From Candidatus Peregrinibacteria bacterium CG11_big_fil_rev_8_21_14_0_20_46_8 (lineage in GTDB: Bacteria; Patescibacteriota; Gracilibacteria; UBA1369; UM-FILTER-53-11), in NCBI GenBank assembly GCA_002796025.1, contig PCVQ01000026.1, positions 1-35,905 on the forward strand: DNA of 35,905 nt, written 5' to 3'. This document shows, piece after piece, positions 1 through 32,564 of the stretch. Each line of letters starts with the position of its first letter. Position 1 is the stretch's first letter. Under the pieces are notes generated by a model. That model made no database searches and was not told the origin of the DNA. It worked only from the letters and a program-made list of their open reading frames with translations. The position numbers and the translations under genes were made by a program.

Positions 1-199
1 GCCGCTTTGCGTAGTATCGGTTTCGGCTTTCAGTGCGCGAAACACCTGTGAGACCGGGCTCGCCGACATTGTCAGATGCCTCGCGAAGCGCTTCTTGTTG
101 CACAATTTGAAATCCGTCGTGGTATGCCATCAGGAGCAAGGGCGTAGCAATGAGCGCAATAGTTAGGACGAAATGGCTTATTTTAAGGCTTTTTCGCAT
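1..199 (-). CDS. hypothetical protein, N-terminal fragment (gene runs off the left edge)
   Basis: The reverse complement of 1-199 starts at ATG (199-197) and reads MRKSLKISHFVLTIALIATPLLLMAYHDGFQIVQQEALREASDNVGEPGLTGVSRTESRNRYYAKR with no stop. A basic N-terminus followed by a hydrophobic stretch looks like a signal peptide or membrane anchor. It is absent from the ORF track because it is truncated. Confidence 0.45.
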   Translation of the reverse strand, partial: MRKSLKISHFVLTIALIATPLLLMAYHDGFQIVQQEALREASDNVGEPGLTGVSRTESRNRYYAKR

Positions 200-863: not shown

Positions 864-1409
864 TTAGGCGAGACAGTGGAGGATCACCGCCCCGCCGATT
901 GCGGCTGCATGCTCCAGGCGCTCCTGCGCCGGGAAGCGGACCCGGATCACGTCCAAGACGCAGATCCAGACCCACAACAGAGCATGCAAGCCGGGGATGC
1001 TCTGAGCTCCCGAAAAATTGTGGCCCGCGAGGGCCACACCGAGAGGAATGAGCATGACGACGTCCATGGCCTTGTCGTCCCATTTCCCCTCTCCCAGGAG
1101 CTGAATGCTCTGCGACCGGGTGATCCTCCACCCGATCCAGACGGCAAAAATCCATACGTCCGCCAAGGCCTTAACCTCGGCGAACGAGAAGTGCAAATTC
1201 CCAAAAAAGAAATACAACGCCACGGCTCCTGCCGTGGCGAAACCCGCGGCCCACCCGCGGGAGCGCACGGCCCAAGCTGAGCCGAACGCCCCCACGAACA
1301 GGAACAAAAGGAGCCAAAGCGTCCACCCGGCGAGGTGTCCGCCCTGGCTCCCTACAGTTAGGATTTCAACGGCATCGCCCCCGATGCCGTCGTAGGTAAT
1401 CTTGTCCAT
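864..1409 (-). CDS. multi-pass (5-6 TM) integral membrane protein of unknown family, encoded by DNA of about 62% GC
   Basis: 181-aa ORF with hydrophobic segments WTLWLLLFLFVGAFGSAWAV, WAAGFATAGAVALYFFFG, ALADVWIFAVWIGW, AMDVVMLIPLGVALAG and LHALLWVWICVLDVI. Third codon positions are strongly G/C in this frame. AAGGAGGT lies 3 nt upstream of the ATG. The other four ORFs overlapping this interval have low-complexity Arg/Pro/Gly/Ser-rich translations. Confidence 0.7.
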   Translation of the reverse strand: MDKITYDGIGGDAVEILTVGSQGGHLAGWTLWLLLFLFVGAFGSAWAVRSRGWAAGFATAGAVALYFFFGNLHFSFAEVKALADVWIFAVWIGWRITRSQSIQLLGEGKWDDKAMDVVMLIPLGVALAGHNFSGAQSIPGLHALLWVWICVLDVIRVRFPAQERLEHAAAIGGAVILHCLA

Positions 1410-1507: not shown

Positions 1508-1536
1508 ATAATAAAACTGCAATTTAATTCTGTCAA
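1508..1536 (-). promoter_or_regulatory. sigma70-type promoter for the high-GC membrane gene
   Basis: The minus strand reads TTGACA (1536-1531), a 17-nt spacer, then TATTAT (1513-1508). The -35 box contains the TGA stop of the upstream ORF 1533-2543. It predicts a leader of about 90 nt that includes the 1404-1426 hairpin. Confidence 0.5.
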
Positions 1537-2543
1537 TAGCGCGACCAATCGACGCGTCCTCCTTTTACCTTATATACAGCCTGAATCTGTCTCTTTATTT
1601 GAGAATCATAAGCATTAACCACTTGCTTCACTGCTCTCTCTTTATCCTGAGCAGACGTTGGACCACTTGCAAATGCAGACTCCACAATAGCCTTGTTTAT
1701 TAGATACTCTTGTCGAAAAGGAATATCTGCTTGCTCCAGAAAATTTGCGCCGACAGTATCAATAACACCATCCGACTCCGCAACTTGCTTCTTCGCCTGC
1801 GCAATACGGCTGCGTGTCAGTTTATCCATGTCAGCAAGAATGACTGCCTTATCTTTTGCATTCAAAAGATGACTTTGTAGTTCCGGATTTGGACCGCGCT
1901 CCGCACGGGGAATCCAGAGCAGGGGAATATGCAAAGGTTTATCGAGGTATTTAAATTGAGTCCAGTCATTTAAATCTTCCTCATGATTTTCACTCAAAAC
2001 ACGAAGGAAATTTTTTAAATCTTTTTCAAAATACTCCACAATCTCTTCTTCCGAAAAATTTTCAACCACTGCATAGTGTGCCGCAGCTTTAGCATAAACA
2101 CTCAAGACATTTGTATACAACTTCAGCGTCTGCGAATCATACAAACGGTGCGCTTGGTGGGCCTTAAATTCACGGTCAAAAATTGCCTGTAGTTTCGCAG
2201 TAAGTGTCGGAATATCTTTCACTTCCAGCGGCTTGAATTTTTTTACATCCAGTTTGTGAGGTGTGACTTCATTGCCTGCAGCCTTATCTAGAGCAATCTG
2301 CATCGGTGCCACAAGATCCGGGAACTCTCCGCACTCTTCACGAAGTTTTGCAAGCTCCGCCTCTGTTTTTTGGAGTGGCTTCTTTGCTTCTGCTGTTTTT
2401 TTTACATCTTCTGTTTCTATTTTGCACTCCGAGCGTGGTTTCCGCTTTTCCGGACTTTCAAAAATAAGGCGGCTCGGTTTGCCGCTTTGATCATTAAATA
2501 CATTTTTAAAATAACAAAAGAATTTCATAATTATGAGATCCAT
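1533..2543 (-). CDS. hypothetical protein (336 aa), last gene of the orphan four-gene operon
   Basis: Long ORF. The ATG at 2543 overlaps the upstream gene by 13 nt. An alternative ATG at 2528 (MKFF...) lies 2 nt after the upstream TAA. The protein is charged and helical with no motif I recognise. Confidence 0.75.
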   Translation of the reverse strand: MDLIIMKFFCYFKNVFNDQSGKPSRLIFESPEKRKPRSECKIETEDVKKTAEAKKPLQKTEAELAKLREECGEFPDLVAPMQIALDKAAGNEVTPHKLDVKKFKPLEVKDIPTLTAKLQAIFDREFKAHQAHRLYDSQTLKLYTNVLSVYAKAAAHYAVVENFSEEEIVEYFEKDLKNFLRVLSENHEEDLNDWTQFKYLDKPLHIPLLWIPRAERGPNPELQSHLLNAKDKAVILADMDKLTRSRIAQAKKQVAESDGVIDTVGANFLEQADIPFRQEYLINKAIVESAFASGPTSAQDKERAVKQVVNAYDSQIKRQIQAVYKVKGGRVDWSRY

Positions 2544-5500
2544 TTAGTGGCGCTGAGTCCAGGTTTTTCAGGATCAAATTTCGGCAGTTTTTCGCTCTGC
2601 ACAGTTCCGCCTACAACTGCATTATCCAAGTGCTGCTTAATCTTTGCACGCACCGTACTAAGAAATGTAATATCTGCAGCATCCAATTTTGCTTTATTCG
2701 CGAGTTGCGCCGTGCTTTCACTCCAAACTCTTAAAACTATCTGCCGTACTTTGTATGCATCGCCCGCAAGCATTTCGATCTTCTCAAAACCCTCATACGT
2801 ATATCCATCGAGCATTTTGCGCAGATCAAGATATTCTTTTTGGTATTCCGGACTTGCATAATTCATGAGCTCGAGTCCTTTAAACGGCGCATTAGCAGTT
2901 AGCAACTGATGAAATTGGGCTCCGCGTTGCTCAGGTGTTAACTTTTCAATACCGCTTACCAATTGTTGCATTTGACCAAGCAGCGTGCGGGGATCATGAA
3001 TATTTCCCATTCTCTCATTGTAAATTTTCTTTATATCAGCGAGGTTTGTGCCGTCTAAAATATCGCGCTCAACAAGGCGCAGTGCCTCCATACTCTTAAA
3101 TTCAATCATGTTTTTCCACCATGCATCGAGAATCGGTCCGTTAATTGCATCTATATTAAAAGATTTGGCCAATTCCCACTTGGCATCAATTTCTTTGGTG
3201 TCTTGAATGAGCTGATTCGCACGCGCAAAGAGATCCCGAAATTCCTTTTGTTCGCTGATATTGCGCACTATCTCAATTGCAAAGTTCCGCCCGTTGGTGT
3301 CGTCAATCTTTATCGCACTCGCACCTCCGACAAATTCTACGCCCGTATCGAGTCCTCCTTTTGCCGGTTTGCCCACAAATGGTACACCGGCAATCTCGCC
3401 CTGGATGCGGGCTTTAAGTGTTGGGTCCGGCGTAACAGATGCTATCTTTACCTCCAGCCCCTGTGCGATAGGTGGCAACATACGCTGAACATGACGTACA
3501 ATAACTTCATCACGATACGCTTCGGCAAGCGCCGAAGGTGATTTTACTTTTTCGGTCTTATAAGAAACTTCAAGATCTTGACCGTCATCGGTTGGCCGTA
3601 CACGGACATCTATGCTCCCTGTCGAAAGACCGAGCGAAGCATCGTTTTGTACCGGCACTCCTTTTACAATCCAGATTTTTTCATTTGTATCCCATATGGG
3701 AGTTTTCGATGCAAGACCCGGAAATTCCGCAGCCTTTTTTGCCACCAGTGCTTTCATTTCTTGTTCAATATGTTTTTCGATATTTGCGGCACTCGCTGTA
3801 TTTATTGCCGAATCACGATCATTTGAGAAATCAAGCTCAAACTGCTTGTTCGTAATAGTTGTTGTTGCTCCCATGATAATTCCTGCTTTGCCGCGCGGCC
3901 CACGATTTTGTAATTTAACGGGAAAGTCATTAATCCGTCCTTCATTGGGTGATGTGAATTCAACTCGAAATGTTTTTGGAAGTGCTCTTTCGTAGCCAAA
4001 GTCAGTTGTTTTTGCAGCAGCCTCGCCAAGCTTGTCTTTAACCGGCCGCTTAAAGCGATTCCAACCCGCCTGCGCAAATTCACTTGTTGGCTCCCACACG
4101 TGCTCGACGGTAGCTGCGGCTGCGGTTTTTGCAGCCTCGCCTGTTGCTGATATACCACGTTTAGCGAGATCTGCTACGGTCCCTAGAGGCGTTGTTTTTT
4201 TCTCTTGTGCAGCATGACTTCTTCGTGCTCGCTCTTCTGTATGCCGAAATCCATTTGCATAGATTGCAATATCAAAAAAAGTCGGCGGATCGTCAAAGCC
4301 ATCGATATACTCTTCAAATAAAATTTGTGCATTTATCTGGCCCGGCTGTTTCGCAAATTCTTTTAACAGTGCTGCCTTATCATTCACTTTGTGCTTCAGC
4401 GCGTATTGATTCACCGCTGCCTGCAAGACAACTCCTTCAACGGCTTCATAGGCAAGTTTGCCATCGATTTCTTTATTATAAAATCCGAGCCGGCGCGGAT
4501 CGATCCATTCTTTTGTGCGGCTATCTACTTTGCTTCCCTCACGATACAGCTCAAAGAGCAGCCGCATGTCCTTGCCGGCAATGTTATCGACGGTTTCTAT
4601 AAAACGAATATTTTCTTTGCGGGCAACTTGGTCGTTTTCCGCCTTTTCATCGGGCCGGACATCTTTTAGGCTGAGAATAAAATTCTTAATCGGATCACTG
4701 TCATCACGATCGTCAATTTTTCGGCCGAACCCCAAATAGTCACTCGGCCGTCGATTGCCGTTCGCATAATTTGCATACCCGGCCACTTCATTTGCTGCAA
4801 TTACTGCAGCGGTGAAGAGCCCAATGCCTCCCCACGAAAAGCCTTTGCCATCTTTTGTTAATGGCCCGGTAAATGGAGCGCGTTTATTCCAGTTTTTTAT
4901 TGCAAGTGCACTTGCGGCTATGGTTGCAACTATAATTGCTATGCGACTTTCCTTACTGCCACGATCCCATACGTCCTTAATAGAACCGAGGGGCGAGGTA
5001 ACCCACTTCGAAAAAGTCGAATTTGCCTCTTCATCGGTCAAATGCTCACGCGCCTCTTTTTTTTCATCGTAGTGCTCCTTAAGTTTAGCGATAATTTCTC
5101 GAAGAACTTCTGTACTTTTTTCCTTCGCAGGTGAGTCATCCGGTGCGGTTATCCCTCTAATAAATTCTGTACGCCCCGTACCTTCGGGCATAACATTCTT
5201 TAAGAACTCGGCCAAACCTTCCGGATCTTTTTTGGACCAAATAACCCAAGCCGTAAAATCTTCGATTGGAGCATCTTCTTTCCGTGAATTAAAGATCACA
5301 ACCTCGAGATGCTTTGCAACGTAGTCAAATTTCGGCGAACTCAAAAAACTTTCGGTGTATTTTTCGGCATCGCCCTCATTTATTTTTTCTCTCATTTTTG
5401 CCAAACCTTCTGTTGTTTCGCTACGCACTCCCATTACCTCTTCATCACGCTTTTTCTTAGCTGCATTCTCTTCGGGTGTTGGTTCAGGAGCGGGTCTGGC

Positions 5501-5695
5501 ATCTAATGCTGTACGTGCTGCGGCTTCGCGTTTTTTGGCAGCAGCTTCGAGCGGCTCAGTACCATAAAACTCCGAAGGATCCGGCGGTGCAGATGAAGCA
5601 GGACCCTCTGCTCCACTTTTTTTACTCCACCGCCACACGAGGCGCGCCACCAAAAACTGTTTTTTGCTATTTTTTTCTTGAGAAAATTCGCACAT
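2531..5695 (-). CDS. large hypothetical membrane protein (1054 aa) with a central pair of hydrophobic helices
   Basis: Uninterrupted 3.2-kb ORF. It has a charged, Pro/Ala/Lys-rich N-region of about 250 aa. Two hydrophobic helices follow, RIAIIVATIAASALAI and GGIGLFTAAVIAANEVAGYA (residues about 251-306, nt 4778-4945). About 750 aa of mixed alpha/beta-looking sequence comes after. No P-loop or catalytic signature seen. Confidence 0.85.
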   Translation of the reverse strand: MCEFSQEKNSKKQFLVARLVWRWSKKSGAEGPASSAPPDPSEFYGTEPLEAAAKKREAAARTALDARPAPEPTPEENAAKKKRDEEVMGVRSETTEGLAKMREKINEGDAEKYTESFLSSPKFDYVAKHLEVVIFNSRKEDAPIEDFTAWVIWSKKDPEGLAEFLKNVMPEGTGRTEFIRGITAPDDSPAKEKSTEVLREIIAKLKEHYDEKKEAREHLTDEEANSTFSKWVTSPLGSIKDVWDRGSKESRIAIIVATIAASALAIKNWNKRAPFTGPLTKDGKGFSWGGIGLFTAAVIAANEVAGYANYANGNRRPSDYLGFGRKIDDRDDSDPIKNFILSLKDVRPDEKAENDQVARKENIRFIETVDNIAGKDMRLLFELYREGSKVDSRTKEWIDPRRLGFYNKEIDGKLAYEAVEGVVLQAAVNQYALKHKVNDKAALLKEFAKQPGQINAQILFEEYIDGFDDPPTFFDIAIYANGFRHTEERARRSHAAQEKKTTPLGTVADLAKRGISATGEAAKTAAAATVEHVWEPTSEFAQAGWNRFKRPVKDKLGEAAAKTTDFGYERALPKTFRVEFTSPNEGRINDFPVKLQNRGPRGKAGIIMGATTTITNKQFELDFSNDRDSAINTASAANIEKHIEQEMKALVAKKAAEFPGLASKTPIWDTNEKIWIVKGVPVQNDASLGLSTGSIDVRVRPTDDGQDLEVSYKTEKVKSPSALAEAYRDEVIVRHVQRMLPPIAQGLEVKIASVTPDPTLKARIQGEIAGVPFVGKPAKGGLDTGVEFVGGASAIKIDDTNGRNFAIEIVRNISEQKEFRDLFARANQLIQDTKEIDAKWELAKSFNIDAINGPILDAWWKNMIEFKSMEALRLVERDILDGTNLADIKKIYNERMGNIHDPRTLLGQMQQLVSGIEKLTPEQRGAQFHQLLTANAPFKGLELMNYASPEYQKEYLDLRKMLDGYTYEGFEKIEMLAGDAYKVRQIVLRVWSESTAQLANKAKLDAADITFLSTVRAKIKQHLDNAVVGGTVQSEKLPKFDPEKPGLSATKWIS

Positions 5696-5718
5696 TTTTA
5701 TTTGTATTTAATCTATTG

Positions 5719-5747
5719 ATTATAGCAAAAAAGCCTATTTGGAGCAA
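5719..5747 (-). promoter_or_regulatory. internal promoter-like site upstream of the 1054-aa gene
   Basis: The minus strand reads TTGCTC (5747-5742), 17 nt, TATAAT (5724-5719), with TG at the extended -10 position (TGCTATAAT). It lies in the only real gap of the operon (5696-5755). Confidence 0.4.
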
Positions 5748-5755
5748 TAGAGCTA

Positions 5756-7000
5756 TTATTTCCGCCTCGATGACTTCTTCTGAGCAAGCTTTTTGGCACG
5801 GCTTTCCGCCGCCTCTTGTGCAGCTGAACCTGCCGCGGCACCAAGCATGGCAGCTGCATTTTCGCGGCTTCCTCCAAATACCGCCTTAAACCCATCAGTA
5901 ACTCCCCCCCAAATTTTCTGCCAAGTACTCTGCACCTCTCGCTCAATCTCCTCGAATTTTACCTTGCTCAGCTCTTTTTTTGCCTCAGCCGGCTTTGCCA
6001 GAGTATTGATGGCAGGAAGCTCTATCTCATTCAAAATGATACTACTGACCGCACCATAGGGAATTCCGGGCTTACTATGATCGACGGTTAATATTAAATC
6101 GCCGACTCGTGTGATTACAGCGGCTTCAAGATGTTCCACTTGCTGCTCTAATGCTTTTAGGTCACTTGCACGAATTCCGGTCGAACTTTGAATTCGCTCG
6201 TGGCTGCCCTTCCAGCGCAAAAAGTAAATCAAGCGCGTGAGATCACGTGGTCTTACTTGAGCAGTCGCCTTTGCAACTTCACTCTGCGTGGGCAAACATC
6301 CCTTTGCCAAATCTTTATATGGAGTTTGATTCCGTAAACAGGATTGCAGAGATTCACGCGTTAAAAATTTGCGCGCGTCAACTACATCACTTGCCTGGGT
6401 ATCGATAGGCGCCAAAGAACCTCCGGCTGTTATAAAAAATTCTGCGGTAGCGTGCGCTGCGGCGCGAATTAAATCAGGTCCGGTAAAGCCGGCTTCCATT
6501 AATTCACGCTCTATTCCTTCAAAAACCACTGCACTCAGCCGAACTGAGGGCGGCGTCTCCCTACAATTTTGCACTGCATCTAAAGCATCTATTACAAAGC
6601 TTTTAAATTGTCTTCCCGGAATTCGATAGTGTCGCCGCATAAGCTTTGTAAGTACATCAGGATCATACAAATTTATCTCCTGATCTTCGGGAATTCCTAC
6701 ATTTTTGCGAATATCGTTCTGACGTGACGGTTCGAGTTTTAGCCACCAATCATAAATATCATGACAAAATAGCAGATACGCCCGGTACAAAAAAGCATTC
6801 GTTCCATAATCATCTAAATCAATATCGCCGCCTTTTTTTGCAAGCATACTATTAAGTTCACGCGCAAATGCTCCGCCATCAAATCTTTGCAATTCTTCGT
6901 ACCATCCTCTAAAGGACTCATAGGTAACGCCCTGTGGTGTGTTTTTCACCATTTCGAGACTTGTAATATCGTATGATCGTATTGGCTTTTCTGCTGACAT
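5756..7000 (-). CDS. hypothetical soluble protein (414 aa)
   Basis: Long ORF whose ATG at 7000 is 2 nt after the upstream TAA (7005-7003). The C-terminus has a Gly/Ala-rich segment and then a Lys/Arg-rich tail (...GGSRENAAAMLGAAAGSAAQEAAESRAKKLAQKKSSRRK). No recognisable domain. Confidence 0.8.
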   Translation of the reverse strand: MSAEKPIRSYDITSLEMVKNTPQGVTYESFRGWYEELQRFDGGAFARELNSMLAKKGGDIDLDDYGTNAFLYRAYLLFCHDIYDWWLKLEPSRQNDIRKNVGIPEDQEINLYDPDVLTKLMRRHYRIPGRQFKSFVIDALDAVQNCRETPPSVRLSAVVFEGIERELMEAGFTGPDLIRAAAHATAEFFITAGGSLAPIDTQASDVVDARKFLTRESLQSCLRNQTPYKDLAKGCLPTQSEVAKATAQVRPRDLTRLIYFLRWKGSHERIQSSTGIRASDLKALEQQVEHLEAAVITRVGDLILTVDHSKPGIPYGAVSSIILNEIELPAINTLAKPAEAKKELSKVKFEEIEREVQSTWQKIWGGVTDGFKAVFGGSRENAAAMLGAAAGSAAQEAAESRAKKLAQKKSSRRK

Positions 7001-7002
7001 AG

Positions 7003-7629
7003 TTATTGGCAGTTATCATTATTCTCGAACGGGTCGCGAACTAGAGCATACGTTCCTGACGAGGTACCGGCGCCTTTGCTTACAACTGTAGGTTGAGGCG
7101 TAACTACAAATCGCTCTCCGCCAATGCATGCACGTACAACCGCCACTATTTCATCTCCAAAATCGCGAGGATTTATGTTTTCGAAATTAGATGGAATTTC
7201 TGATTGATTGCATGTATCAATAACTACAGAGGGCGGGGGAGTTGCAAGGGAAAGTTCCGCATTATCGCCGATACCGGCTATTTTAAAAGTTAAATGAACA
7301 TTGGGAATTGTTTCTAATGCTTCTCCAACACATTTTCCCGGAGGATTTATACGCACCGCCTCTTCAGCCATTTTATCGGTATCTATTTGCGAGATAGTTG
7401 CCTTCGATTTCTTTTTAGCCCGATCCGCCCCTGCGCAGTGGGTAACTGCAAGACCTGCCACAAAGAGCGCGCCAAGAGCAACAGCAATCTTCCCGCGATT
7501 ACTCGAAATTTTTGCCAGCAACCCACTTGGCGGCGGTGGCGCAGGAGGATGTGTTACGCCGGGTGCAACTATAGGTACAGGGGCAGGGCTGGGTCCTGGC
7601 GGGGGAGTTGGGCTTGGTGGACGAATCAT
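7003..7629 (-). CDS. hypothetical single-pass membrane protein with Pro-rich N-terminal tail (208 aa)
   Basis: MIRPPSPTPPPGPSPAPVPIVAPGVTHPPAPPPPSG is followed by one TM helix (IAVALGALFVAGLAV) and an extracytoplasmic domain of about 130 aa containing 4-5 Cys. It is the first gene of the operon. Confidence 0.75.
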   Translation of the reverse strand: MIRPPSPTPPPGPSPAPVPIVAPGVTHPPAPPPPSGLLAKISSNRGKIAVALGALFVAGLAVTHCAGADRAKKKSKATISQIDTDKMAEEAVRINPPGKCVGEALETIPNVHLTFKIAGIGDNAELSLATPPPSVVIDTCNQSEIPSNFENINPRDFGDEIVAVVRACIGGERFVVTPQPTVVSKGAGTSSGTYALVRDPFENNDNCQ

Positions 7630-7718
7630 TTTTTTCCGTTAAAGATAGAAAGTAGTAGATTATATCAGCGAATTTTTACTTGTCAAGTACCCTCTTTCAT
7701 GGTAGTCTAGGCTTCGCT

Positions 7719-7749
7719 TTGCCAAAAAATCACTAACTTTAATCATAAT
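7719..7749 (+). promoter_or_regulatory. candidate tig promoter, possibly giving a leaderless mRNA
   Basis: TTGCCA (7719-7724), 19 nt, CATAAT (7744-7749). The ATG at 7755 is only 5 nt downstream of the -10 box and there is no SD. Confidence 0.35.
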
Positions 7750-7754
7750 TTCGC

Positions 7755-9047: not shown

Positions 9048-9076
9048 TTGTTTCCAAGGCGATTTTGTTCTATAAT
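9048..9076 (+). promoter_or_regulatory. promoter directly abutting the start codon of the small membrane protein gene
   Basis: TTGTTT (9048-9053), 17 nt, TATAAT (9071-9076). The ATG at 9083 is 6 nt downstream, so the transcript is predicted to be leaderless. Confidence 0.4.
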
Positions 9077-9082
9077 ATCTTT

Positions 9083-9334
9083 ATGAAAGGTTTTTATCTT
9101 GCGGGTTCGATAATTTTTACCGTACTTATTTTGATTGTGGGGTTCCAGAATTTTGGAGCAATCGTACAAGGCTTCGGTGTCTTCTTTACGAGCTTTAATG
9201 GCATAAGCGGAACTATGGTAGTATTTGGTTCGGCATTGCTTGGAATTTTTGCCGGGGGATTTTATTTTGGTTTTCTTCACTCACTCTTTAGTAAGAGTAG
9301 CGAAGATGATGAGGAAGGCGGAGCAGACTTCTAA
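9083..9334 (+). CDS. small two-TM membrane protein, LapA/DUF1049-like, with acidic tail
   Basis: MKGFYLAGSIIFTVLILIVGFQNF...MVVFGSALLGIFAGGFYFGFLHSLF...SSEDDEEGGADF. The track ORF starts at TTG 9065, but that position lies inside the promoter, so the ATG at 9083 is preferred. Confidence 0.6.
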   Translation: MKGFYLAGSIIFTVLILIVGFQNFGAIVQGFGVFFTSFNGISGTMVVFGSALLGIFAGGFYFGFLHSLFSKSSEDDEEGGADF

Positions 9335-9564: not shown

Positions 9565-10137
9565 ATGCTCAAAAAACTTTTTACATCCGGCGCTCGCGTT
9601 AAGCTTCTAGAAATTTTCCTCCTCAATCCAGATGGAGAATTTTTTATTCGTGAATTAACACGCCGTCTCGATGAGCAAATCAATTCTATTCGTCGTGAAC
9701 TCACCAATCTTAAAAGCTGCGGCCTTCTCAAATCTCGCGTTAAAAACCGTAAAAAGTTTTATGTAGTTAATAAAAACTTTATCTTTTTTCATGAACTGCG
9801 CTCGATAGTTCTTAAAGAAGCCCGTGGACTTGATGATTTGGCAAAGCGCATTCAAAAACTTGGTGATGTTGATCTTTTAGTACTCTCCGGGATTTTCCTC
9901 GAAAAAGAGTCACCAACTGATCTTTTTACGGTTGGGAATATTAATAAAGAGGATATCGATAATATGCTGAGTGAATTTACTGAAGGACAAAGTGCACCGG
10001 TTCGCATGAGTGTCATGAGTCGTGAGGATTTTCTGTATCGCCTAAAAATACGCGATAAATTCGTCATGGAAACGCTTCGTGATCCCGAAAATCTTATTGC
10101 TGTAAATAAGCTTGAAAAACAGATAGAAGATAGGTAA
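9565..10137 (+). CDS. winged-helix (ArsR/MarR-like) DNA-binding protein with C-terminal domain of unknown function
   Basis: The N-terminus SGARVKLLEIFLLNPDGEFFIRELTRRLDEQINSIRRELTNLKSCGLLKSRVKNRKKFYVVN fits a wHTH pattern of helix-turn-helix plus a beta wing. Confidence 0.7.
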   Translation: MLKKLFTSGARVKLLEIFLLNPDGEFFIRELTRRLDEQINSIRRELTNLKSCGLLKSRVKNRKKFYVVNKNFIFFHELRSIVLKEARGLDDLAKRIQKLGDVDLLVLSGIFLEKESPTDLFTVGNINKEDIDNMLSEFTEGQSAPVRMSVMSREDFLYRLKIRDKFVMETLRDPENLIAVNKLEKQIEDR

Positions 10138-10149
10138 AGTAGGCTAGCT

Positions 10150-10593
10150 ATGATTAAAGAATTCGAACAAACTCAACTCAAAAAGAAGCACGCAAACGTC
10201 CAGTTTAAGCCAGGAATGATTGTTCGTGTGCAGCAGAAAATTCTCGAAGGAGACAAAGAGCGCCTGCAGGCTTTTGAGGGACTTGTTATTAAAGTGAGCA
10301 GTGGCAGCGGGCCCAATAAAACTATTACCGTGCGCAAGGTTGTTGGCGGTGTAGGCGTAGAAAAGATTATTCCTATTCACTCGCCGCTTGTTGACCATAT
10401 AGAGATTCGTAAACAGATGGCGGTGCGCCGTGCAAAACTCTATTACATGCGTGATGAAAAGCGTACAAAGCGCTTATATGAGGACAGAACAAAGAAGATT
10501 GCCGAAGTTCCTGTAGAAGAGCCAAAAGCAAAGGCACCGGTTAAGGAGGAAGAGCCAGCGGTTGAGACCGAAGAAGCGCCAAAAGACGAATAG
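10150..10593 (+). CDS. rplS: 50S ribosomal protein L19 with Lys/Glu/Pro-rich C-terminal extension
   Basis: FKPGMIVRVQQKILEGDKERLQAFEGLVIKVSSGSGPNKTITVRKVVGGVGVEKIIPIHSPLVDHIEIRKQMAVRRAKLYYMR is the canonical L19 core. Confidence 0.93.
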   Translation: MIKEFEQTQLKKKHANVQFKPGMIVRVQQKILEGDKERLQAFEGLVIKVSSGSGPNKTITVRKVVGGVGVEKIIPIHSPLVDHIEIRKQMAVRRAKLYYMRDEKRTKRLYEDRTKKIAEVPVEEPKAKAPVKEEEPAVETEEAPKDE

Positions 10594-11732: not shown

Positions 11733-13064
11733 ATGAAAGTCGAACGACCAGAAAAAATAACGGAGCAGGAAGCTATGGAAATCACCTCGGATGCAGGTTA
11801 TACATCCGAAGGCCCCTCTGACTGGAGGAGTTCCTTAAAAACTTCAGTTCGCAAGCGCAGATTCGGAACTGCTGCACAAATCGCTGCTTTGGGCGCGGTT
11901 CTGTCGGCACCAGCTACAGTCTCTGCTGGAGGCGGAACCAGTTACCATATAGAGCTTGAAAATCCCGAAAAGAGTGCGGCCTGGCAGGCAGTTCCTGTTG
12001 TAGCATATACAGGAGAAAAAATACCATATCGCTTTGAGGATGAAGGGAGAATACTTGTAATTCAAACACGTGCAGGTGCTTTAATTGAGCTTCGCGGCCA
12101 ATGTCCATCGCGGGCCTATGATCCATCGACAACAGTCGAGCTCCTGAACGTGAATCCCAAAGATAATACATTGGGCCCGGCAGTAACCGACCGCCCTGCA
12201 AATTCACTCTTCATTGAAACAGAGGCTCCAAATGTCCTACCAACTGGCAATTGGATAATTCCGGAATTTCATGTGCCGCATGTTCCACCAGGAAGTAAAT
12301 TAACCGGTTTTATTAATTGTAAATTTGATGGATCTGATAGTGACAGTGTGTTGCGTGTTATTATTGAAGTTGATTCAGGGGGACCAGGCGGCCATGGTAG
12401 AGGAGGAAGAGGGGCCTGGGAATATCCGCCACTACATACGCCACGAAAAGGTGCACGAACGGGTACACCAAAAGATTCTGAATATTCTGCACGCCGTCGC
12501 CGTCCGGTTGAGGTCGATGAGGGTGCACAAAATAAACTCTTTGCCCGCGTGCTTGCCACATTGCCGCAGGCGGATACGAGCGGACTGCTTCCGGGTGTCG
12601 AAATCGAATATCAACATGCGATCACCCGCTATCTCTTATTGGCAGTATTTGCAGGATACTATCGCGGTGAAGGAAGTACCTGGTTTATGCATCCAAGCGG
12701 TGACAAGGCACTTTCTGAGGCAGCATTTGTCGAATTTGAGTCACTTCTTGCAGGTGCAGGTTTAGAGTGGAATTATCCTCTTACAAAGCGTGTTGCAGTG
12801 CGAGCAGCACTTCATGCCGTGCTGGCAGGAACATTTGGCGAAGAGGTACCGCAAGGTACGGCAGCAGGTGGTGTTGGTGCAGCACTTCGCTTAAGTACAG
12901 GTATTGATTTTTCTTTAGCACCTGAGTCATGGAAAGATGATGAAGAAGGCATAACTGATTTTGGCGTAGGTGTTGGTGTTAACGGGCACCCTGCCGGTAT
13001 TAATGCACATCCAGGAGTCGTACCGCAGTTGAGTTTTGAATTGCGTGGTGGTGTCTCATTCTAA
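11733..13064 (+). CDS. secreted hypothetical protein with an RR-containing signal peptide, a Gly/Arg-rich linker and a beta-barrel-like C-terminal domain ending in Phe
   Basis: The signal-like segment is SVRKRRFGTAAQIAALGAVLSAPATVSA|GGG (residues about 38-65). The low-complexity linker is GGPGGHGRGGRGAW...RRRRP. The last 170 aa or so have alternating hydrophobic/polar strands and end ...VVPQLSFELRGGVSF. Confidence 0.75.
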   Translation: MKVERPEKITEQEAMEITSDAGYTSEGPSDWRSSLKTSVRKRRFGTAAQIAALGAVLSAPATVSAGGGTSYHIELENPEKSAAWQAVPVVAYTGEKIPYRFEDEGRILVIQTRAGALIELRGQCPSRAYDPSTTVELLNVNPKDNTLGPAVTDRPANSLFIETEAPNVLPTGNWIIPEFHVPHVPPGSKLTGFINCKFDGSDSDSVLRVIIEVDSGGPGGHGRGGRGAWEYPPLHTPRKGARTGTPKDSEYSARRRRPVEVDEGAQNKLFARVLATLPQADTSGLLPGVEIEYQHAITRYLLLAVFAGYYRGEGSTWFMHPSGDKALSEAAFVEFESLLAGAGLEWNYPLTKRVAVRAALHAVLAGTFGEEVPQGTAAGGVGAALRLSTGIDFSLAPESWKDDEEGITDFGVGVGVNGHPAGINAHPGVVPQLSFELRGGVSF

Positions 13065-13108
13065 GTTTTTCATATTAGCCCGACTCGTATTTATAACCAC
13101 TCGATACT

Positions 13109-14638
13109 ATGAAATTACGCTCATCAGCGCGCACTGCGCCTGCGCCGCTTAGTCCGCCAAAGAGGATTAATCCAAAATACACACGTCTTATTTCACAGTT
13201 TTTTACTGCAGCCGTCCTGAGTACTGCCGGATGCAAAGCTCCTGTTGCAAATGGCTTGTTACATGGCGATGCAGAGACGCCGGCACACGCGGATGCAGCG
13301 CAAGTCGCACCGCAACCCGACGCAGGCTTTCCAGCACATCCAGACGCAGTGATTGTATTTCCCGATGCAATGGAAATCGACAGCGGCGCAGCCGATGCTG
13401 GTATGTTGATTGATGCGGGTACTGCTGTGGATACTGGAGCTGGTGGAGACCCTGTTACCGATAGCGACAATGATGGTGTGCTTGATGATGATGATAACTG
13501 TCGTACAACCCCAAATTCGGACCAAGCAGACGCTGATCGTGATCGCGTAGGAGATGTTTGCGACAATGCACCAAATACACCAAACCGCACACAACGTGAT
13601 GATGATAACGATGGTATAGGCGATGCCGTTGATAACTGTAATTCTGTTCCAACTCAAGATCAATCAGATACTGATGGGGACCAGGTGGGGGACGCATGTG
13701 ACTGCGAACCTAACGATCCAAATATTCACGGTGCAAATCTTCCAAGGACAGTAGCTGCAACAGATCCGGCTTGCGATGGAATCGATCAAAATTGTGATGG
13801 AATTGATACCGGCGGAGCAAACTGCGAAGGAGTAATTGGCGATACAAGACCATTTGGAGCAACCGATCTTGGCAGTTGTGAATTTGGTGAAGAAGTAGTT
13901 GTCCCTCTTTTTAATAATGCAGGTGAAATTGTAGGCAGCAGATATGTTGTTCGTACTGCTTCAGTCGGCCCTCAGCGTGAGCGATGCGACGACAGGTTGG
14001 ACAACGATTGTGATGGCGCAGTAAATAATGGCTGCGCATGTACATATGATGTTGCAACTCCCGCAAATAATGAATTGAATTGTGGGCCTACCGATGTAGG
14101 AGATTGTGAATTTGGAACTCAACGCTGCATGCCGGACGGTACATTGACTGAGTGCATCGGAGCTCGGCTTCCCGAGGCAGTGGAAGATCCTGATCCTGCT
14201 ACAGACAGAAACTGTAATGGAAATCCGACCGATGGCTTTCCAACACTGGGTGATACATGTGGAATTGGGGTATGTGCAGGCGGCATTATAGAGGCGACAA
14301 ATCTGCAAGCAACGACAGTTGCAGCTGCAGGCCTTCGTTGCTCGACAATGCCCGGTGGCTCAGCTGATGCTTCAGGTCCGGAACTGTGTAATCGTCAAGA
14401 CGATGACTGTAATGGAAGAACAGACGACGCTCAGTTCCCACGCATTAACAGTAACCCGGCTACCGGAATGTCAGAGATGTTAAGACCAGGCGAAATTTGC
14501 ATCAACAGTGTAACAACAACAACGGTACCTCAGTTTCAAATTAGCGATCGCATTTGTGCTACAGAATGCTTCCCTATTGGTACACAAAATACACACTGCC
14601 CTGAAAATCCAGCAGTATGTATTGATGTTGTTCGCTAA
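13109..14638 (+). CDS. probable lipoprotein with thrombospondin type-3-like Ca-binding repeats and Cys-rich CxxxDxDCDG-type (MopE-like putative metal-binding) motifs
   Basis: A lipobox-like LSTAGC lies at residues 37-42. TSP3-like repeats are [62 protein letters not shown]. Cys-rich motifs are [44 protein letters not shown]. Confidence 0.85.
13457..13702 (+). repeat. tandem TSP3-like Asp-rich calcium-binding repeats (protein-level repeat inside CDS 13109-14638)
   Basis: Residues about 117-198 carry repeated DxDxDGxxDxxDNC...DQxDxDxDxxGDxCD units. Confidence 0.7.
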
Positions 14639-30311: not shown

Positions 30312-32564
30312 TTAAATCAACGGCTCTTCAAATTTCTCTTCGCCGGCTGCCACCAAAATATCCTCATCAGCTTTTGTTGCCGCTTCATCCCAGCGCTGCA
30401 GCGCCTCTTCAACCTCTTGGCGGGAGCGAGAATATTTTTTGCGCGACATATCGATAATTGTCTGTGCATGGGTGCGTTCCACAGGTGGTGTAGGAACCGT
30501 AAGTGTTCTTCCGGAAAATGCATCGCGCAGCTCCCCATCTACAGACATCTTTACATAAAATTCTCGTACACCGAGATTAATAATATCTCGCACTTTGAAT
30601 ACCGGCGTATACTCATTTTCAAGAATTGCAGCATCCTCTGCACCAACGCGGAAGTTCATTATGGTACCGACATTACCAAAGGCGGTAGTGCGAATTTCAT
30701 GACTGAGTTGTCCCATGTACTGGTGCGCCATACAAAGATTGAGGCGGTATTTACGGGCTTCGGACAAAATTTCGGCAAAAGTATTCGTTGCAAAGTACTG
30801 AAACTCATCGCAATACAGATAAAAATCGCGCCGTTGCTCCTCAGGGGTATCGGTTCGCGACATAGCCGCTTGCTGAATTTTTGTTACCACCATCGATCCA
30901 ATCAGAGCAGTATTTTCTTCCCCAAGTGCACCCTTAGAAATACGCATCAAAAGAATTTTTCCGGTATCCATAATTTCGCGAATATTAATCTTATTTTCCG
31001 CCTGCCCCACAATATTCCGAATCATCGAAGTAGAAACAAACTGACCTACTTTATTTAAGATCGGCATAATCGCCTCGTTGTCGAATTTTTCGTTCCAGGC
31101 GGCAAACTCGTTGACCCAGAAATTCTTTACTACAGAGTCCTGAATACGCGCCACAATTTTTTGGCGGTAATTCTTATCCGAGAGCATCTTCAAAATAGAG
31201 AGCACCGTGGTACCCGGTGAATCCAAAAGTGCCAGCGTGGTATAGCGCAGTACATGCTCTAAACGCGGCGTCCAGGCGTTACCAAAAAGCTTTTTAAAAA
31301 TATCTATAAAGCCGATCGTGACGCGCAAACGTAGCTCTGGGGGCACTTGCTCAAGAGGATTAAAGGCAACAGGATAGTCATAATCGGCAGGATTAAAGTA
31401 GACAACATCCTGCATGCGCTCCTTGGGGACATAGTTCAATACATTATCCACAAGATCGCCGTGCGGATCCAGAACGCCGACCCCGTGCCCGTAACGAATA
31501 TCTTCAGAAATAAGCAGCTCCAGCATCTTTGATTTACCGGTACCGCTCTTACCAACAACGTAAACGTGCCTGCGCCTATCTGCCCGCTTTAATCCGAAGG
31601 TGATATTTTCATTATGAAAATTTGTAACACCGAATGAAGAGACAGAATCTCCGCTCGTCTCGGTAACACGTGGCAAATCACGCGGTGGCTCGGCTTTTTT
31701 CGCCAAAACATGCACTACATGGGGAACATCATCAGGATGAGGAAAGTGGTAAACCGAAGCAACCTCCTGCGAACTTAAATGAAATGTCTCGGGCAAATTG
31801 CGATGCTGATAGCGCTTGAGAAATGAGTCTTTTCTAGCCATTCGCATCGGCTTAAATCCATTCAAATCTATCGTATTAAATTGCATATAGGCTTTAATCA
31901 GGACCTCAAGTTTTTGCCTGGCCGTAGCATCGTCACTTGCAACATAGGCAAGCCGAATTCCCGTCCGATAGGTACGATGCTCTGCTTTTGCCTTATATGC
32001 CTCATTTTCCATTTCGCGCATAGCGCGCGCAGATTTTAATTTAAAGTAATTTTTTAAACGGAAATACAGCTTCACACGATTCAGTTTCATCTTCCATGAG
32101 CGGAAAAAATTTAACGACCAGTCATCTGCAACCGGCTCAGAAAAAACCTGAATCCAAATTTGCTCTTGATTGGATGCCTTTGTCATTACTGAATAAATGC
32201 CGGCAAGCGAGTCACCTTCAAATTCAGTATATGTTTTTATCGGAATAATATCTGAACGCAAAAGCTTTAGTTCTGTACCGGCAAAACCACGGTTTAAAAC
32301 CTCACTCTTCGCATAGTCGGCAGATTCTTCAATTTCGGCAAACGGATACAGGGCATAGACCTGTCCCTCGATAAGCTCTTTAATATTGCGGTCACAACAA
32401 ATAAAGAAGTAAATATGCTGATTATAGGATGTAACTTCAAAAGAGAGATTTCTGCGTTTCAAAATCTCATGCATATTGACCAACAATTGTTCGAAAGTTC
32501 GCGCTCGTTTCTCTATTTCCTGAGGAATACGTACGAGAAGGAGTACTTTAGTCTGTGGAAACAT
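30312..32564 (-). CDS. TraD/TraG/VirD4-like (FtsK-HerA superfamily) P-loop ATPase without N-terminal TM segments
   Basis: Walker A is VVGKSGTGKSKM followed by VLDPHGDL. Walker B is FYLYCDEFQYF. The C-terminal region AHQYMGQL...GNVGTIMNFRVG is typical of coupling-protein-like ATPases. The N-terminal 330 aa or so is a soluble domain of unknown function. Confidence 0.85.
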   Translation of the reverse strand: MFPQTKVLLLVRIPQEIEKRARTFEQLLVNMHEILKRRNLSFEVTSYNQHIYFFICCDRNIKELIEGQVYALYPFAEIEESADYAKSEVLNRGFAGTELKLLRSDIIPIKTYTEFEGDSLAGIYSVMTKASNQEQIWIQVFSEPVADDWSLNFFRSWKMKLNRVKLYFRLKNYFKLKSARAMREMENEAYKAKAEHRTYRTGIRLAYVASDDATARQKLEVLIKAYMQFNTIDLNGFKPMRMARKDSFLKRYQHRNLPETFHLSSQEVASVYHFPHPDDVPHVVHVLAKKAEPPRDLPRVTETSGDSVSSFGVTNFHNENITFGLKRADRRRHVYVVGKSGTGKSKMLELLISEDIRYGHGVGVLDPHGDLVDNVLNYVPKERMQDVVYFNPADYDYPVAFNPLEQVPPELRLRVTIGFIDIFKKLFGNAWTPRLEHVLRYTTLALLDSPGTTVLSILKMLSDKNYRQKIVARIQDSVVKNFWVNEFAAWNEKFDNEAIMPILNKVGQFVSTSMIRNIVGQAENKINIREIMDTGKILLMRISKGALGEENTALIGSMVVTKIQQAAMSRTDTPEEQRRDFYLYCDEFQYFATNTFAEILSEARKYRLNLCMAHQYMGQLSHEIRTTAFGNVGTIMNFRVGAEDAAILENEYTPVFKVRDIINLGVREFYVKMSVDGELRDAFSGRTLTVPTPPVERTHAQTIIDMSRKKYSRSRQEVEEALQRWDEAATKADEDILVAAGEEKFEEPLI

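Follow-up and report, generated by a model that had tools for sequence, protein, structure and literature searches.

A tig-adjacent cassette of apparently new protein families in Candidatus Peregrinibacteria, built around the gene pair g3-g4

Gene content and conservation of the cassette

The window analyzed here is a stretch of 35,905 nucleotides (contig PCVQ01000026.1, positions 1 to 35,905) from assembly GCA_002796025.1 of Candidatus Peregrinibacteria bacterium CG11_big_fil_rev_8_21_14_0_20_46_8. On its minus strand it carries four genes of the same direction, g1, g2, g3, and g4 (Table 1), which a preliminary description, made from the DNA letters, had presented as an orphan four-gene operon built around a 1054-amino-acid (aa) protein with a membrane hairpin. 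All four open reading frames (ORFs) were confirmed, and so were the junctions given for them, namely, TAA-ct-ATG between g1 and g2 and TAA-tt-ATG between g3 and g4. The arrangement of the first junction suggests that g2 is probably translationally coupled to g1. For g4, which had been described as a 336-aa protein, the longer ORF and an alternative ATG at position 2543 do exist; the most likely start is, however, ATG 2528, because this codon is chosen by the gene callers and places a peptide typical of the family (see below) at the very N terminus.

The term orphan did not hold, since counterparts of all four genes occupy the equivalent position in other genomes. When 1.84 billion cluster representatives were scanned exhaustively with HMMER, 32 proteins of the g3 family emerged, 17 of them at E < 1e-30, most of which are 995 to 1369 aa long and align nearly end to end with g3; the window protein itself aligns with the family over residues 57 to 1053, and about 30 of the relatives are full-length, with identities of 22 to 31%. 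In an alignment of 24 sequences, the relatives are 21 to 28% identical to the window g3, and the 20 invariant residues are, with few exceptions, Trp, Tyr, Phe, Gly, or Pro. Word-indexed searches for homologues, run with g3, with g2, and with the g3 alignment returned the query itself as the sole match and would therefore, taken alone, wrongly have implied true orphans, so that the exhaustive HMMER scan was needed. No relatives of g3 were found in 185,579 reference genomes, and a scan of metagenome contigs gave pattern matches that included no relatives. A scan of the reference genomes for tig (trigger factor), which relied on word patterns and reaches close relatives only, led to distant, non-syntenic genomes, the closest trigger factor being 34% identical. 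One member of the g3 family, PJC37439.1, belongs to Candidatus Peregrinibacteria bacterium CG_4_9_14_0_2_um_filter_53_11 (GCA_002788775.1), where all four cassette genes are annotated as "hypothetical protein." Lineage-specific hypothetical proteins are common in genomes of the candidate phyla radiation (CPR). Full-length, collinear homologues of g3 occur in more than 20 other assemblies, and the large ORF is therefore neither spurious nor an assembly fusion. The DNA of the three contigs that hold exactly this g3 is 100% identical; they therefore probably stem from a single population and add no independent evidence.

Gene content, assigned by family hidden Markov models (HMMs) and profile comparisons, was compared over twelve family-bearing loci (L007 to L018), which correspond to eleven relatives, L013 and L014 being the same region in two assemblies. 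In all ten genomes with upstream sequence (the window and nine relatives), g3 adjoins tig, which is divergently oriented. A separate g4 lies directly 3' of g3 in the window and in L009, L010, L011, L014, L015, L016, and L017, whereas it is fused to the C terminus of g3 in L007 (1369 aa), L012 (1288 aa), and L018 (1335 aa); L008, whose contig ends at this point, was left out of the count. Judged from gene order, the comparison shows that g3 and g4 form the invariant core, always adjacent or, in three lineages, fused, and such fusions classically indicate that the two products function together. By the same comparison, g1 and g2 are shown to be optional accessory genes upstream of the core. Specifically, g1 is present in the window, L007, L008, L011, L014, L016, and L018, absent from L012 and L017, and was not detected in the positional analogues of L009 and L015, while g2 is present in the window, L008, L009, L014, L015, L016, and L018 and absent from L007, L011, L012, and L017. 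A four-gene operon is thus too simple a picture: although g3 and g4 always occur together, several genomes lack g1 and several lack g2, and the locus is better described as an invariant g3-g4 unit with its own promoter and two optional genes behind a further promoter, P1. The cassette can accordingly be defined by a protein of about 1000 to 1370 aa that lies beside tig and holds the hairpin EK-x-MILGAIGIG...KYKD / GALWGINYLSGKVSxDGxTLLQRLD, by a helical protein of the g4 type that follows it or is fused to it, and by a TGG-TATAAT-AAGATTAAAAATAAA leader in front. The window shows all of these features: the g3 alignment, the hairpin, the position next to tig, the g4 partner, and the leader.

Retained in the relatives, the cassette yet diverges much faster than its neighbors, as protein identities between the window and nine relatives show. 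Identities reach 43 to 51% for tig, 55 to 63% for the ribosomal protein gene L19, 64 to 71% for a 190-aa winged-helix protein, and 36 to 45% for a pyruvyl transferase, compared with 22 to 27% for g3 and 21 to 25% for g4; those of g1 and g2 fall below tblastn detection.

That the locus is native and not recently imported had been proposed from base composition, and this was borne out. The guanine-plus-cytosine content of the cassette region (0.42 to 0.49) is the same as in the remainder of the window, and at least 10 flanking genes are syntenic between the window and Peregrinibacteria genomes. The syntenic block comprises a PfkB kinase, a nucleotidyl transferase, a large TSP3/MopE-like protein, the pyruvyl transferase, L19, the 190-aa winged-helix protein, a membrane protein of about 82 to 94 aa, and tig; the last five of these form the flanking block in most of the longer contigs. 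At the level of sequence, these comparisons show the cassette to be specific to the lineage Candidatus Peregrinibacteria, within the CPR, and vertically inherited. A prophage or mobile-element remnant, with g3 as a tape-measure-like or internal-virion-like protein, would agree with the length of g3, its largely helical character, and its internal hydrophobic segments, and in the viral library BFVD the g3 model indeed matches tape measure proteins and internal virion proteins best (E 7e-3 to 2e-2, probability 0.12 to 0.23). Yet no PHROGs match falls below E 0.1, relatives of the cassette are absent from 2.9 million viral contigs, 50,697 phage records, and 72,556 plasmid records, the position beside tig is constant across divergent genomes, the base composition is native, and the flanks contain no phage structural, integrase, or tail genes (PHROGs on g1 to g5; Pfam on the larger ORFs of the window). 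Such an origin is therefore extremely improbable and, given the fixed locus and the lack of viral, phage, and plasmid relatives, effectively refuted.

The preliminary description had been unable to assign a known motif to any of the four proteins, and systematic searches agree with it. Family searches were sequence and profile searches of the HMMER type, whereas fold searches used whole-protein models of g3 and g4. No credible match for g1 to g4 was obtained in Pfam, NCBIfam, PHROGs, or PADLOC; the window proteins matched no Pfam or NCBIfam family even at E <= 1, apart from isolated chance-level matches, and a motif scan of g1 to g4 for Walker A, HExxH, and CxxC was empty. A Walker-A-like string occurs somewhere in 7 of the 24 g3 relatives and is missing from the window g3. 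Among the relatives of all four families, nothing reached E <= 0.01 in Pfam except for matches of single members, i.e., YOMG_N for one g3 relative (E 0.0046) and Collagen and DUF4381 for one g1 relative each. The family profiles of g1, g2, g3, and g4 yielded nothing credible against PDB sequences; a match of the g1 profile to Csy3 (E 0.002) is regarded as spurious, since it falls mostly over the low-complexity tail and the membrane-helix region. Profile comparison gave no sign of hidden paralogy between g2 and g3, and a match between the g3 and g4 profiles merely reflects the fused members. With the full-length g3 model, Foldseek found no PDB match better than E 0.23, which is not significant, and the best BFVD match, a tape measure protein, has E 7e-3 at a probability of 0.12; no match in either library reached E 1e-3. 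The best PDB match of the g4 model has E 1.5. Likewise, no Pfam or NCBIfam profile of the division and elongation scaffolds EzrA, DivIVA, RodZ, MreC, FtsQ, and ZipA matched the window proteins, and for S-layer or sortase anchoring, the N termini of g3 and g4 lack a hydrophobic core, LPxTG is absent, and no SLH or related Pfam domain was matched. Literature and accession searches found no published description of the cassette genes. On the evidence of these searches and of the g3 and g4 models, the four families appear to lie outside all described families and solved folds tested, although sharper remote-homology methods might place individual domains. The suggestion of an undescribed system is thereby upheld, and as a set of protein families the cassette appears new.

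Promoters, leader, and the shared N-terminal peptide

Two promoter-like elements are associated with the cassette. The promoter scan identified P1 upstream of g1, with 12 of 12 positions matching the sigma-70 consensus. Its -35 element, TTGACAAAT, recurs in the spacer between tig and g1 of L007, L009, L014, L015, L016, and L018; this conserved element serves the first gene after tig and is separate from the promoter of g3. For the latter, here called P2, the preliminary description had pointed to a TTGCTC-17-TGcTATAAT site just ahead of g3, and this site is real and conserved in 11 other genomes, even though it escaped the generic promoter scan owing to a -35 hexamer that agrees with the consensus at only 3 of 6 positions. 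P2 is followed by an A-rich leader, CAATAGATTAAATACAAATAAAA, and then by the ATG at 5695, with no Shine-Dalgarno site. An alignment of 80 nucleotides (nt) around the g3 start from 12 loci reads TTGnnn, about 17 nt, TGG-TATAAT, ttnAAGATtAAAAAtAAAcA, and ATG; invariant positions are spread over the -10 element as well as the A-rich leader, and here, too, a Shine-Dalgarno site is missing. Consistently, each of eight loci contains a single copy of the pattern TATAATNNNRAGATWAAA, at most about 35 nt upstream of the g3 ATG, and the closely related pattern TATAATNNNNAGATWAAAWA has a single match in the window, at 5705 to 5724. The P2 element is kept even where g3 directly follows tig or g1 (L012, L017, and L007).

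Phylogenetic footprinting thus bears out P2 and shows that g3 and g4, as far as conserved DNA can indicate, constitute a transcription unit of their own. Since a scan found no terminator-like site between g2 and g3, read-through from P1 is possible as well. The DNA of the leader is conserved though the g3 proteins themselves are only 22 to 45% identical, which suggests a constrained role in expression; we infer that the leader may give strong, Shine-Dalgarno-independent translation, and the cassette is probably highly expressed. In the relative L011, the called start of the g3 homologue is a TTG (10001) that lies upstream of the promoter and leader (10015 to 10032); ATG 10049 is probably the genuine start, and with it the N-terminal peptide also falls into its proper position. 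Shine-Dalgarno sites are found elsewhere, of the AAGGTG type before tig in several relatives and as AAGGAGG before g5, a gene downstream of the cassette in the window, whereas g1 and g3 of the window (7630 to 7754 upstream of g1) and g3 of the relatives have A-rich leaders and no such site. Two styles of translation initiation are therefore mixed in these genomes.

Many g3 and g4 proteins, although members of two unrelated families, have an N-terminal peptide of about 25 aa in common. It takes the form M-x-[FL]-F ... (P)-x-R-L-[IV]-[FYW]-[ED], followed by Pro-rich sequence, and reads MCEFSQEKNSKKQFLVARLVWRW in the window g3 and MKFFCYFKNVFNDQSGKPSRLIFESP in g4. Of 550 candidate starts in the window and the loci, 12 fit a strict regular expression, and 11 of these 12 belong to g3 or g4 members; the HMM of the g4 family additionally aligns with roughly the first 70 residues of g3 homologues. 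The position of the peptide therefore fixes the start of g3 at ATG 5695 and favors ATG 2528 for g4. Among 25 full-length g3 representatives, 8 have the strict peptide and about 10 more have looser forms, while it is missing from about 7. A missed upstream start does not account for the loss in L008 and L009, where no in-frame start supplies the peptide, and in the fused proteins of L007 and L012 the aligned g4 segments lack it. The peptide may serve in docking, targeting, or export.

Protein architecture and a proposed g3-g4 complex

AlphaFold2 was used to model g3 from the 24 sequences and produced a model with a mean predicted local distance difference test (pLDDT) of 68.5. Model confidence is highest, with values of 85 to 93, for approximately residues 630 to 1054, and the sequence divides into the segments listed in Table 1, i.e., a disordered N terminus, charged helices, three helical domains (A, B, and C), an alpha/beta domain, a variable linker, and two hydrophobic helices. 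The protein contains one cysteine. The model of g4 (pLDDT 65.8) is a helical bundle with a confident core of residues 100 to 180 and 220 to 320, its first 100 or so residues being disordered. A hydropathy scan found no N-terminal hydrophobic segment in g3 or g4; a Sec-type signal peptide is therefore unlikely, and the large domains of both proteins are most simply cytoplasmic.

The two accessory proteins differ from this pattern. g1 consists of a variable Pro-rich N-terminal tail, a clear membrane helix at approximately residues 48 to 66 (Kyte-Doolittle value 2.1), and a beta-rich C-terminal domain of about 130 to 140 aa. The tail and the single helix had been described before, along with a Cys-containing outer domain; the former two stand, but the cysteines of the C-terminal domain are not conserved in the relatives. 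The flank on the N side of the helix is net positive in five of six members, which favors an N-in/C-out orientation. For g2, a conserved, hydrophobic C-terminal helix rich in small residues and followed by a basic tail is found family-wide; its relation to the positional counterparts (364 to 585 aa) is supported by hhalign (probability 94%, E 1e-7, 307 columns) and by matches of the family HMM.

The two hydrophobic helices of g3 had been proposed as a membrane hairpin, and while both helices proved to be conserved, their hydrophobicity is only moderate. The hairpin lies at a conserved position in all 24 aligned members and, together with the motif DGxTLLQRLD directly after helix 2, is the most conserved part of g3, with a group conservation of 0.73 to 0.80 versus about 0.6 for the folded domains. 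With a mean hydrophobicity of 0.5 and a hydrophobic moment of 0.08, its helices are uniformly hydrophobic and non-amphipathic. Lys and aromatic residues flank them, AlphaFold leaves them unpacked, and a small-xxx-small motif is present in helix 2 of 24/24 members. The loop between them is about 14 aa long and rich in Lys. Kyte-Doolittle maxima are 1.47 and 1.29 in the window g3, which is marginal, and 1.3 to 1.8 in those family members that pass a cut-off of 1.3, five members having lower values.

From these features, we tentatively favor a model, with a probability of roughly 0.4, in which g3 and g4 assemble into a structural complex, abundant and non-enzymatic, that is anchored at the cytoplasmic face of the cell's own membrane. 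A non-enzymatic nature is suggested by the structural character of the invariant residues and by the lack of any conserved catalytic or nucleotide-binding motif. The Gly/Ala-rich helical hairpin of g3 would hold the complex on the membrane, probably packing with copies of itself, while both large arms of g3 and the whole of g4 would remain in the cytoplasm. Where present, g2 would dock peripherally at the membrane, and g1 would connect the assembly across the membrane to the outside. Candidate processes would be membrane organization, envelope or division scaffolding, and the architecture of host contact. An envelope-associated module, as proposed earlier, is plausible in this respect, since the membrane helix of g1, the conserved hairpin of g3, and the hydrophobic helix and basic tail of g2 give the module the appearance of being membrane-associated.

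Several observations weigh against the anchored complex. The helices of the hairpin are short, with about 15 to 17 hydrophobic residues, and the Lys-rich loop between them would be unusual for an external loop. Their estimated insertion energy of +5 to +7 kcal/mol lies well above that of a typical self-inserting helix and compares with +1.1 kcal/mol for the g1 helix and -0.6 kcal/mol for the g5 helix on the same rough, position-independent scale; these figures are indicative only. Fast divergence is unusual for a core housekeeping scaffold and would fit proteins of the surface or of host interaction. A membrane scaffold leaves the shared N-terminal peptide without a role, unless it serves as a docking element. 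Finally, in the g1 homologue of L007 (8965 to 9723), collagen triple-helix repeats (Pfam Collagen, E 4e-12) make up about 100 aa of the N-terminal tail, which the model places in the cytoplasm, in conflict with the proposed topology of g1.

The energetics of the hairpin would also suit a soluble, cytoplasmic complex, e.g., a cytoskeletal or nucleoid-associated scaffold, whose hydrophobic helices form a buried core or an oligomerization interface. The Kyte-Doolittle maxima stay below the usual threshold of 1.6 in the window g3 and several relatives, the three regions flanking the hairpin helices, loop included, are all positively charged, and in L012 and L017 the core pair occurs without g1. 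On the other hand, a buried core of such conservation would normally be modeled confidently, yet the pLDDT of the hairpin is only 41 to 46; aromatic and Lys belts mark both helix ends, the hydrophobic moment is near zero, and the accessories of the pair are a true membrane protein, g1, and a protein whose tail resembles membrane-targeting tails, g2. We therefore consider a wholly soluble complex unlikely, while taking it seriously.

The shared peptide could also be read as a non-classical export signal, with g3 and g4 leaving the cell as a translocon or effector. The hairpin would then stay soluble until it inserts into a host membrane, g1 would act as a membrane adaptor, and g2 as a chaperone. 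What speaks for this is the near-exclusive occurrence of the same N-terminal peptide on two unrelated families of one unit, along with its absence from the g4 part of the fused proteins, as expected if its N-terminal position is obligatory. Fast evolution relative to the neighbors would fit, and so would the marginal hydrophobicity of the hairpin, a trait typical of pore-forming toxins and secretion translocators. The pore-forming toxins TcdA1, AhlB, and SmhB appear among the top Foldseek ranks of the g3 model, although far from significance (E >= 0.23, probability <= 0.14). A symbiotic mode of life has been inferred for the related Peribacteria, in which type II secretion genes and type IV pili are also described (PMC4736985), and export would agree with this; the uncultured Peregrinibacteria that carry the cassette are probably symbiotic as well. 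However, none of the 12 loci has a linked secretion-system gene, the peptide is missing from about 7 of 25 full-length g3 members, with an upstream extension excluded for two of them (L008 and L009), and the locus is fixed, single, and set amid housekeeping genes. As a whole, with the roles it assigns to g1 and g2, an exported device is rather improbable on this sequence-level reading. A more specific version, in which g3 and g4 would be a contact-dependent, membrane-inserting machine that exits by means of the peptide and drives its hairpin into the host membrane as a conduit or anchor by which these bacteria, being unable to make lipids of their own, would obtain lipids or metabolites, is a distinctly long shot.

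The cassette is of interest in several respects. The CPR accounts for a large share of bacterial diversity and is mostly uncultured, and how its members organize their envelopes and how they attach to hosts or feed on them is poorly understood; a cassette that is lineage-wide and fixed in position offers a concrete, testable handle on cell biology specific to Peregrinibacteria. Owing to the gene fusions, the shared peptide, and the leader conservation, the core pair is unusually well defined, and the confidently modeled C-terminal half of g3 and the core of g4 have no fold match in the PDB. Even as a mere scaffold, the cassette would contribute a conserved regulatory element and four new protein families, which include at least one alpha/beta domain that is apparently new; if the proteins were exported, it would add a new secretion signal and a new device for host interaction.

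Neighboring genes and comparison with known systems

Downstream of the cassette, g5 was considered as a fifth member and rejected: no significant homologue is found at the equivalent position, and the gene is equipped with a promoter-like site of its own and with a strong Shine-Dalgarno site (AAGGAGG). In eight relatives, a well-conserved protein of 273 to 301 aa is encoded on the downstream side of the cassette, in some cases not immediately next to it. It begins with a signal-peptide-like hydrophobic segment in most copies, and several match the Pfam family Peptidase_Mx, the match being weak in four loci and unmarked in L018. It was not counted as part of the conserved core, as the window has no counterpart and the unrelated membrane protein g5 sits in its place.

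On the other side, the winged-helix-like protein is the most conserved gene of the neighborhood, and the small hydrophobic protein (49 to 66% identity) between it and tig is always paired with it. The L19 protein has 147 aa in total, including a C-terminal extension rich in Lys, Glu, and Pro, and the 3' end of its gene overlaps the longest ORF of the pyruvyl transferase (TTG at 10562). Further along, proteins of 443 and 509 aa resemble the variable exported proteins of Peribacteria. The sole secretion-related gene of the window encodes a 750-aa ATPase-like protein about 23 kb from the cassette.

Table 1. Positions of the cassette genes, regulatory elements, protein segments, and neighboring genes (window positions unless a locus is named)
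Feature	Position (nt)	Strand	Residues	pLDDT	Remarks
g1	7003-7629	-			208-aa ORF; single-membrane-helix protein, optional accessory
g2	5756-7000	-			414-aa ORF without membrane helix, optional accessory
g3	2531-5695	-			1054-aa ORF; core protein
g4	1533-2528	-			331 aa; core partner of g3; 336 aa from the first ATG (1533-2543)
Promoter P1	7659-7686	-			TTGACA, 16-nt spacer, TG-extended TATAAT; upstream of g1
Promoter P2 and g3 leader	5696-5747	-			TTGCTC 5747-5742, 17-nt spacer, TGc-TATAAT 5727-5719; A-rich leader
Leader in relatives	L008 2038-2055; L009 3657-3674; L010 22-39; L011 10015-10032; L012 2874-2891; L014 9971-9988; L015 4651-4668				
g3 N-terminal peptide	5621-5695	-	1-25		
g4 N-terminal peptide	2451-2528	-			
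Peptide starts in relatives	L009 6808; L010 55; L011 10049 and 13178; L014 10001; L015 4684 and 7932				
g3, N terminus			1-48	~30	Disordered, holds the N-terminal peptide
g3, charged helices			49-106	~55	
g3, helical domain A			106-221	~78	Invariant G108, W150, and P170-x-G172-x-G174 motif
g3, hydrophobic helices	4760-4954	-	248-270 and 287-312	41-46	Hairpin
g3, helical domain B			331-484	~72	
g3, variable linker			485-570	~43	
g3, alpha/beta domain			571-835	~79	85-93 from ~630
g3, helical domain C			836-1054	~80	85-93 over most of the domain
g5	864-1409				Membrane protein
273-301-aa protein in relatives	L007 14046-14900; L009 8747-9589; L010 5351-6253; L011 14320-15201; L012 6871-7692; L014 15105-16001; L016 13148-14041; L018 14162-15067				
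Small hydrophobic protein	9065-9334	+			~82-94 aa
Winged-helix-like protein	9565-10137	+			190 aa; weak PF25212 match
L19	10150-10593	+			
443-aa protein	11733-13064	+			No Pfam match; C terminus ...GGVSF
509-aa protein	13109-14638	+			Thrombospondin type 3 repeat; homologues of 511-900 aa in relatives
750-aa protein	30312-32564	-			Weak HerA/DUF87 and type IV secretion coupling-protein (TraG/TrwB-like) ATPase matches

Several described systems share parts of this architecture. Phage tape measure proteins are likewise about 1000 aa long and largely helical, with internal hydrophobic segments, whereas g3 has no phage context, no PHROGs match, and a fixed chromosomal position. The chlamydial Inc proteins, to which the preliminary description had drawn an analogy, resemble g3 in having two close hydrophobic helices arranged as a hairpin between soluble regions, in lacking a classical signal peptide, and in forming fast-evolving, lineage-restricted families. 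Inc hairpins lie near the N terminus, usually within the first third of the protein, have two strongly hydrophobic lobes of about 20 aa joined by a short loop, and belong to proteins whose export depends on type III secretion. In contrast, the hairpin of g3 is central (residues 248 to 312 of 1054) and marginally hydrophobic, there is no sequence similarity, and the organism is a CPR bacterium. Specifically, the bilobed domain was not found in g3, with its loop of about 14 aa, only 15 to 17 hydrophobic residues, and central position, and no type III secretion genes occur in the window or the 12 loci. The analogy thus does not extend to membership in the Inc family, against which the missing homology, the missing type III context, and the central, weakly hydrophobic hairpin all argue.

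A further parallel in layout is provided by the toxins ClyA, AhlB, and SmhB and the translocators IpaB, SipB, and YopB, which combine long helical domains with a central, weakly hydrophobic hairpin and a neighboring partner gene. However, g3 is about twice as large, its confidently modeled alpha/beta and C-terminal helical domains are without counterparts in these proteins, and no secretion apparatus is encoded nearby; Foldseek comparison of the g3 model with AhlB and SmhB in the PDB gave E values of 0.45 to 0.9 at probabilities of 0.06 to 0.08, and no Pfam or PDB profile matched. Bacterial dynamin-like proteins, mitofusin, and atlastin share with g3 two adjacent membrane helices and large helical arms on both sides of them, presumably on the same face of the membrane. 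These proteins need a GTPase domain, whereas g3 has no Walker A motif; none of the 24 g3 members matched a GTPase family of Pfam, and the Foldseek matches to atlastin and Dnm1 are insignificant. Finally, the large, variable, exported Cys-rich proteins proposed to mediate cell-cell interaction in Peribacteria (PMC4736985) come from the same bacterial group and are comparable to g3 in size and variability. Unlike them, g3 has a single cysteine, no signal peptide, and a different architecture, and the neighboring 443-aa and 509-aa proteins (11733 to 14638) are the better fit to that class.

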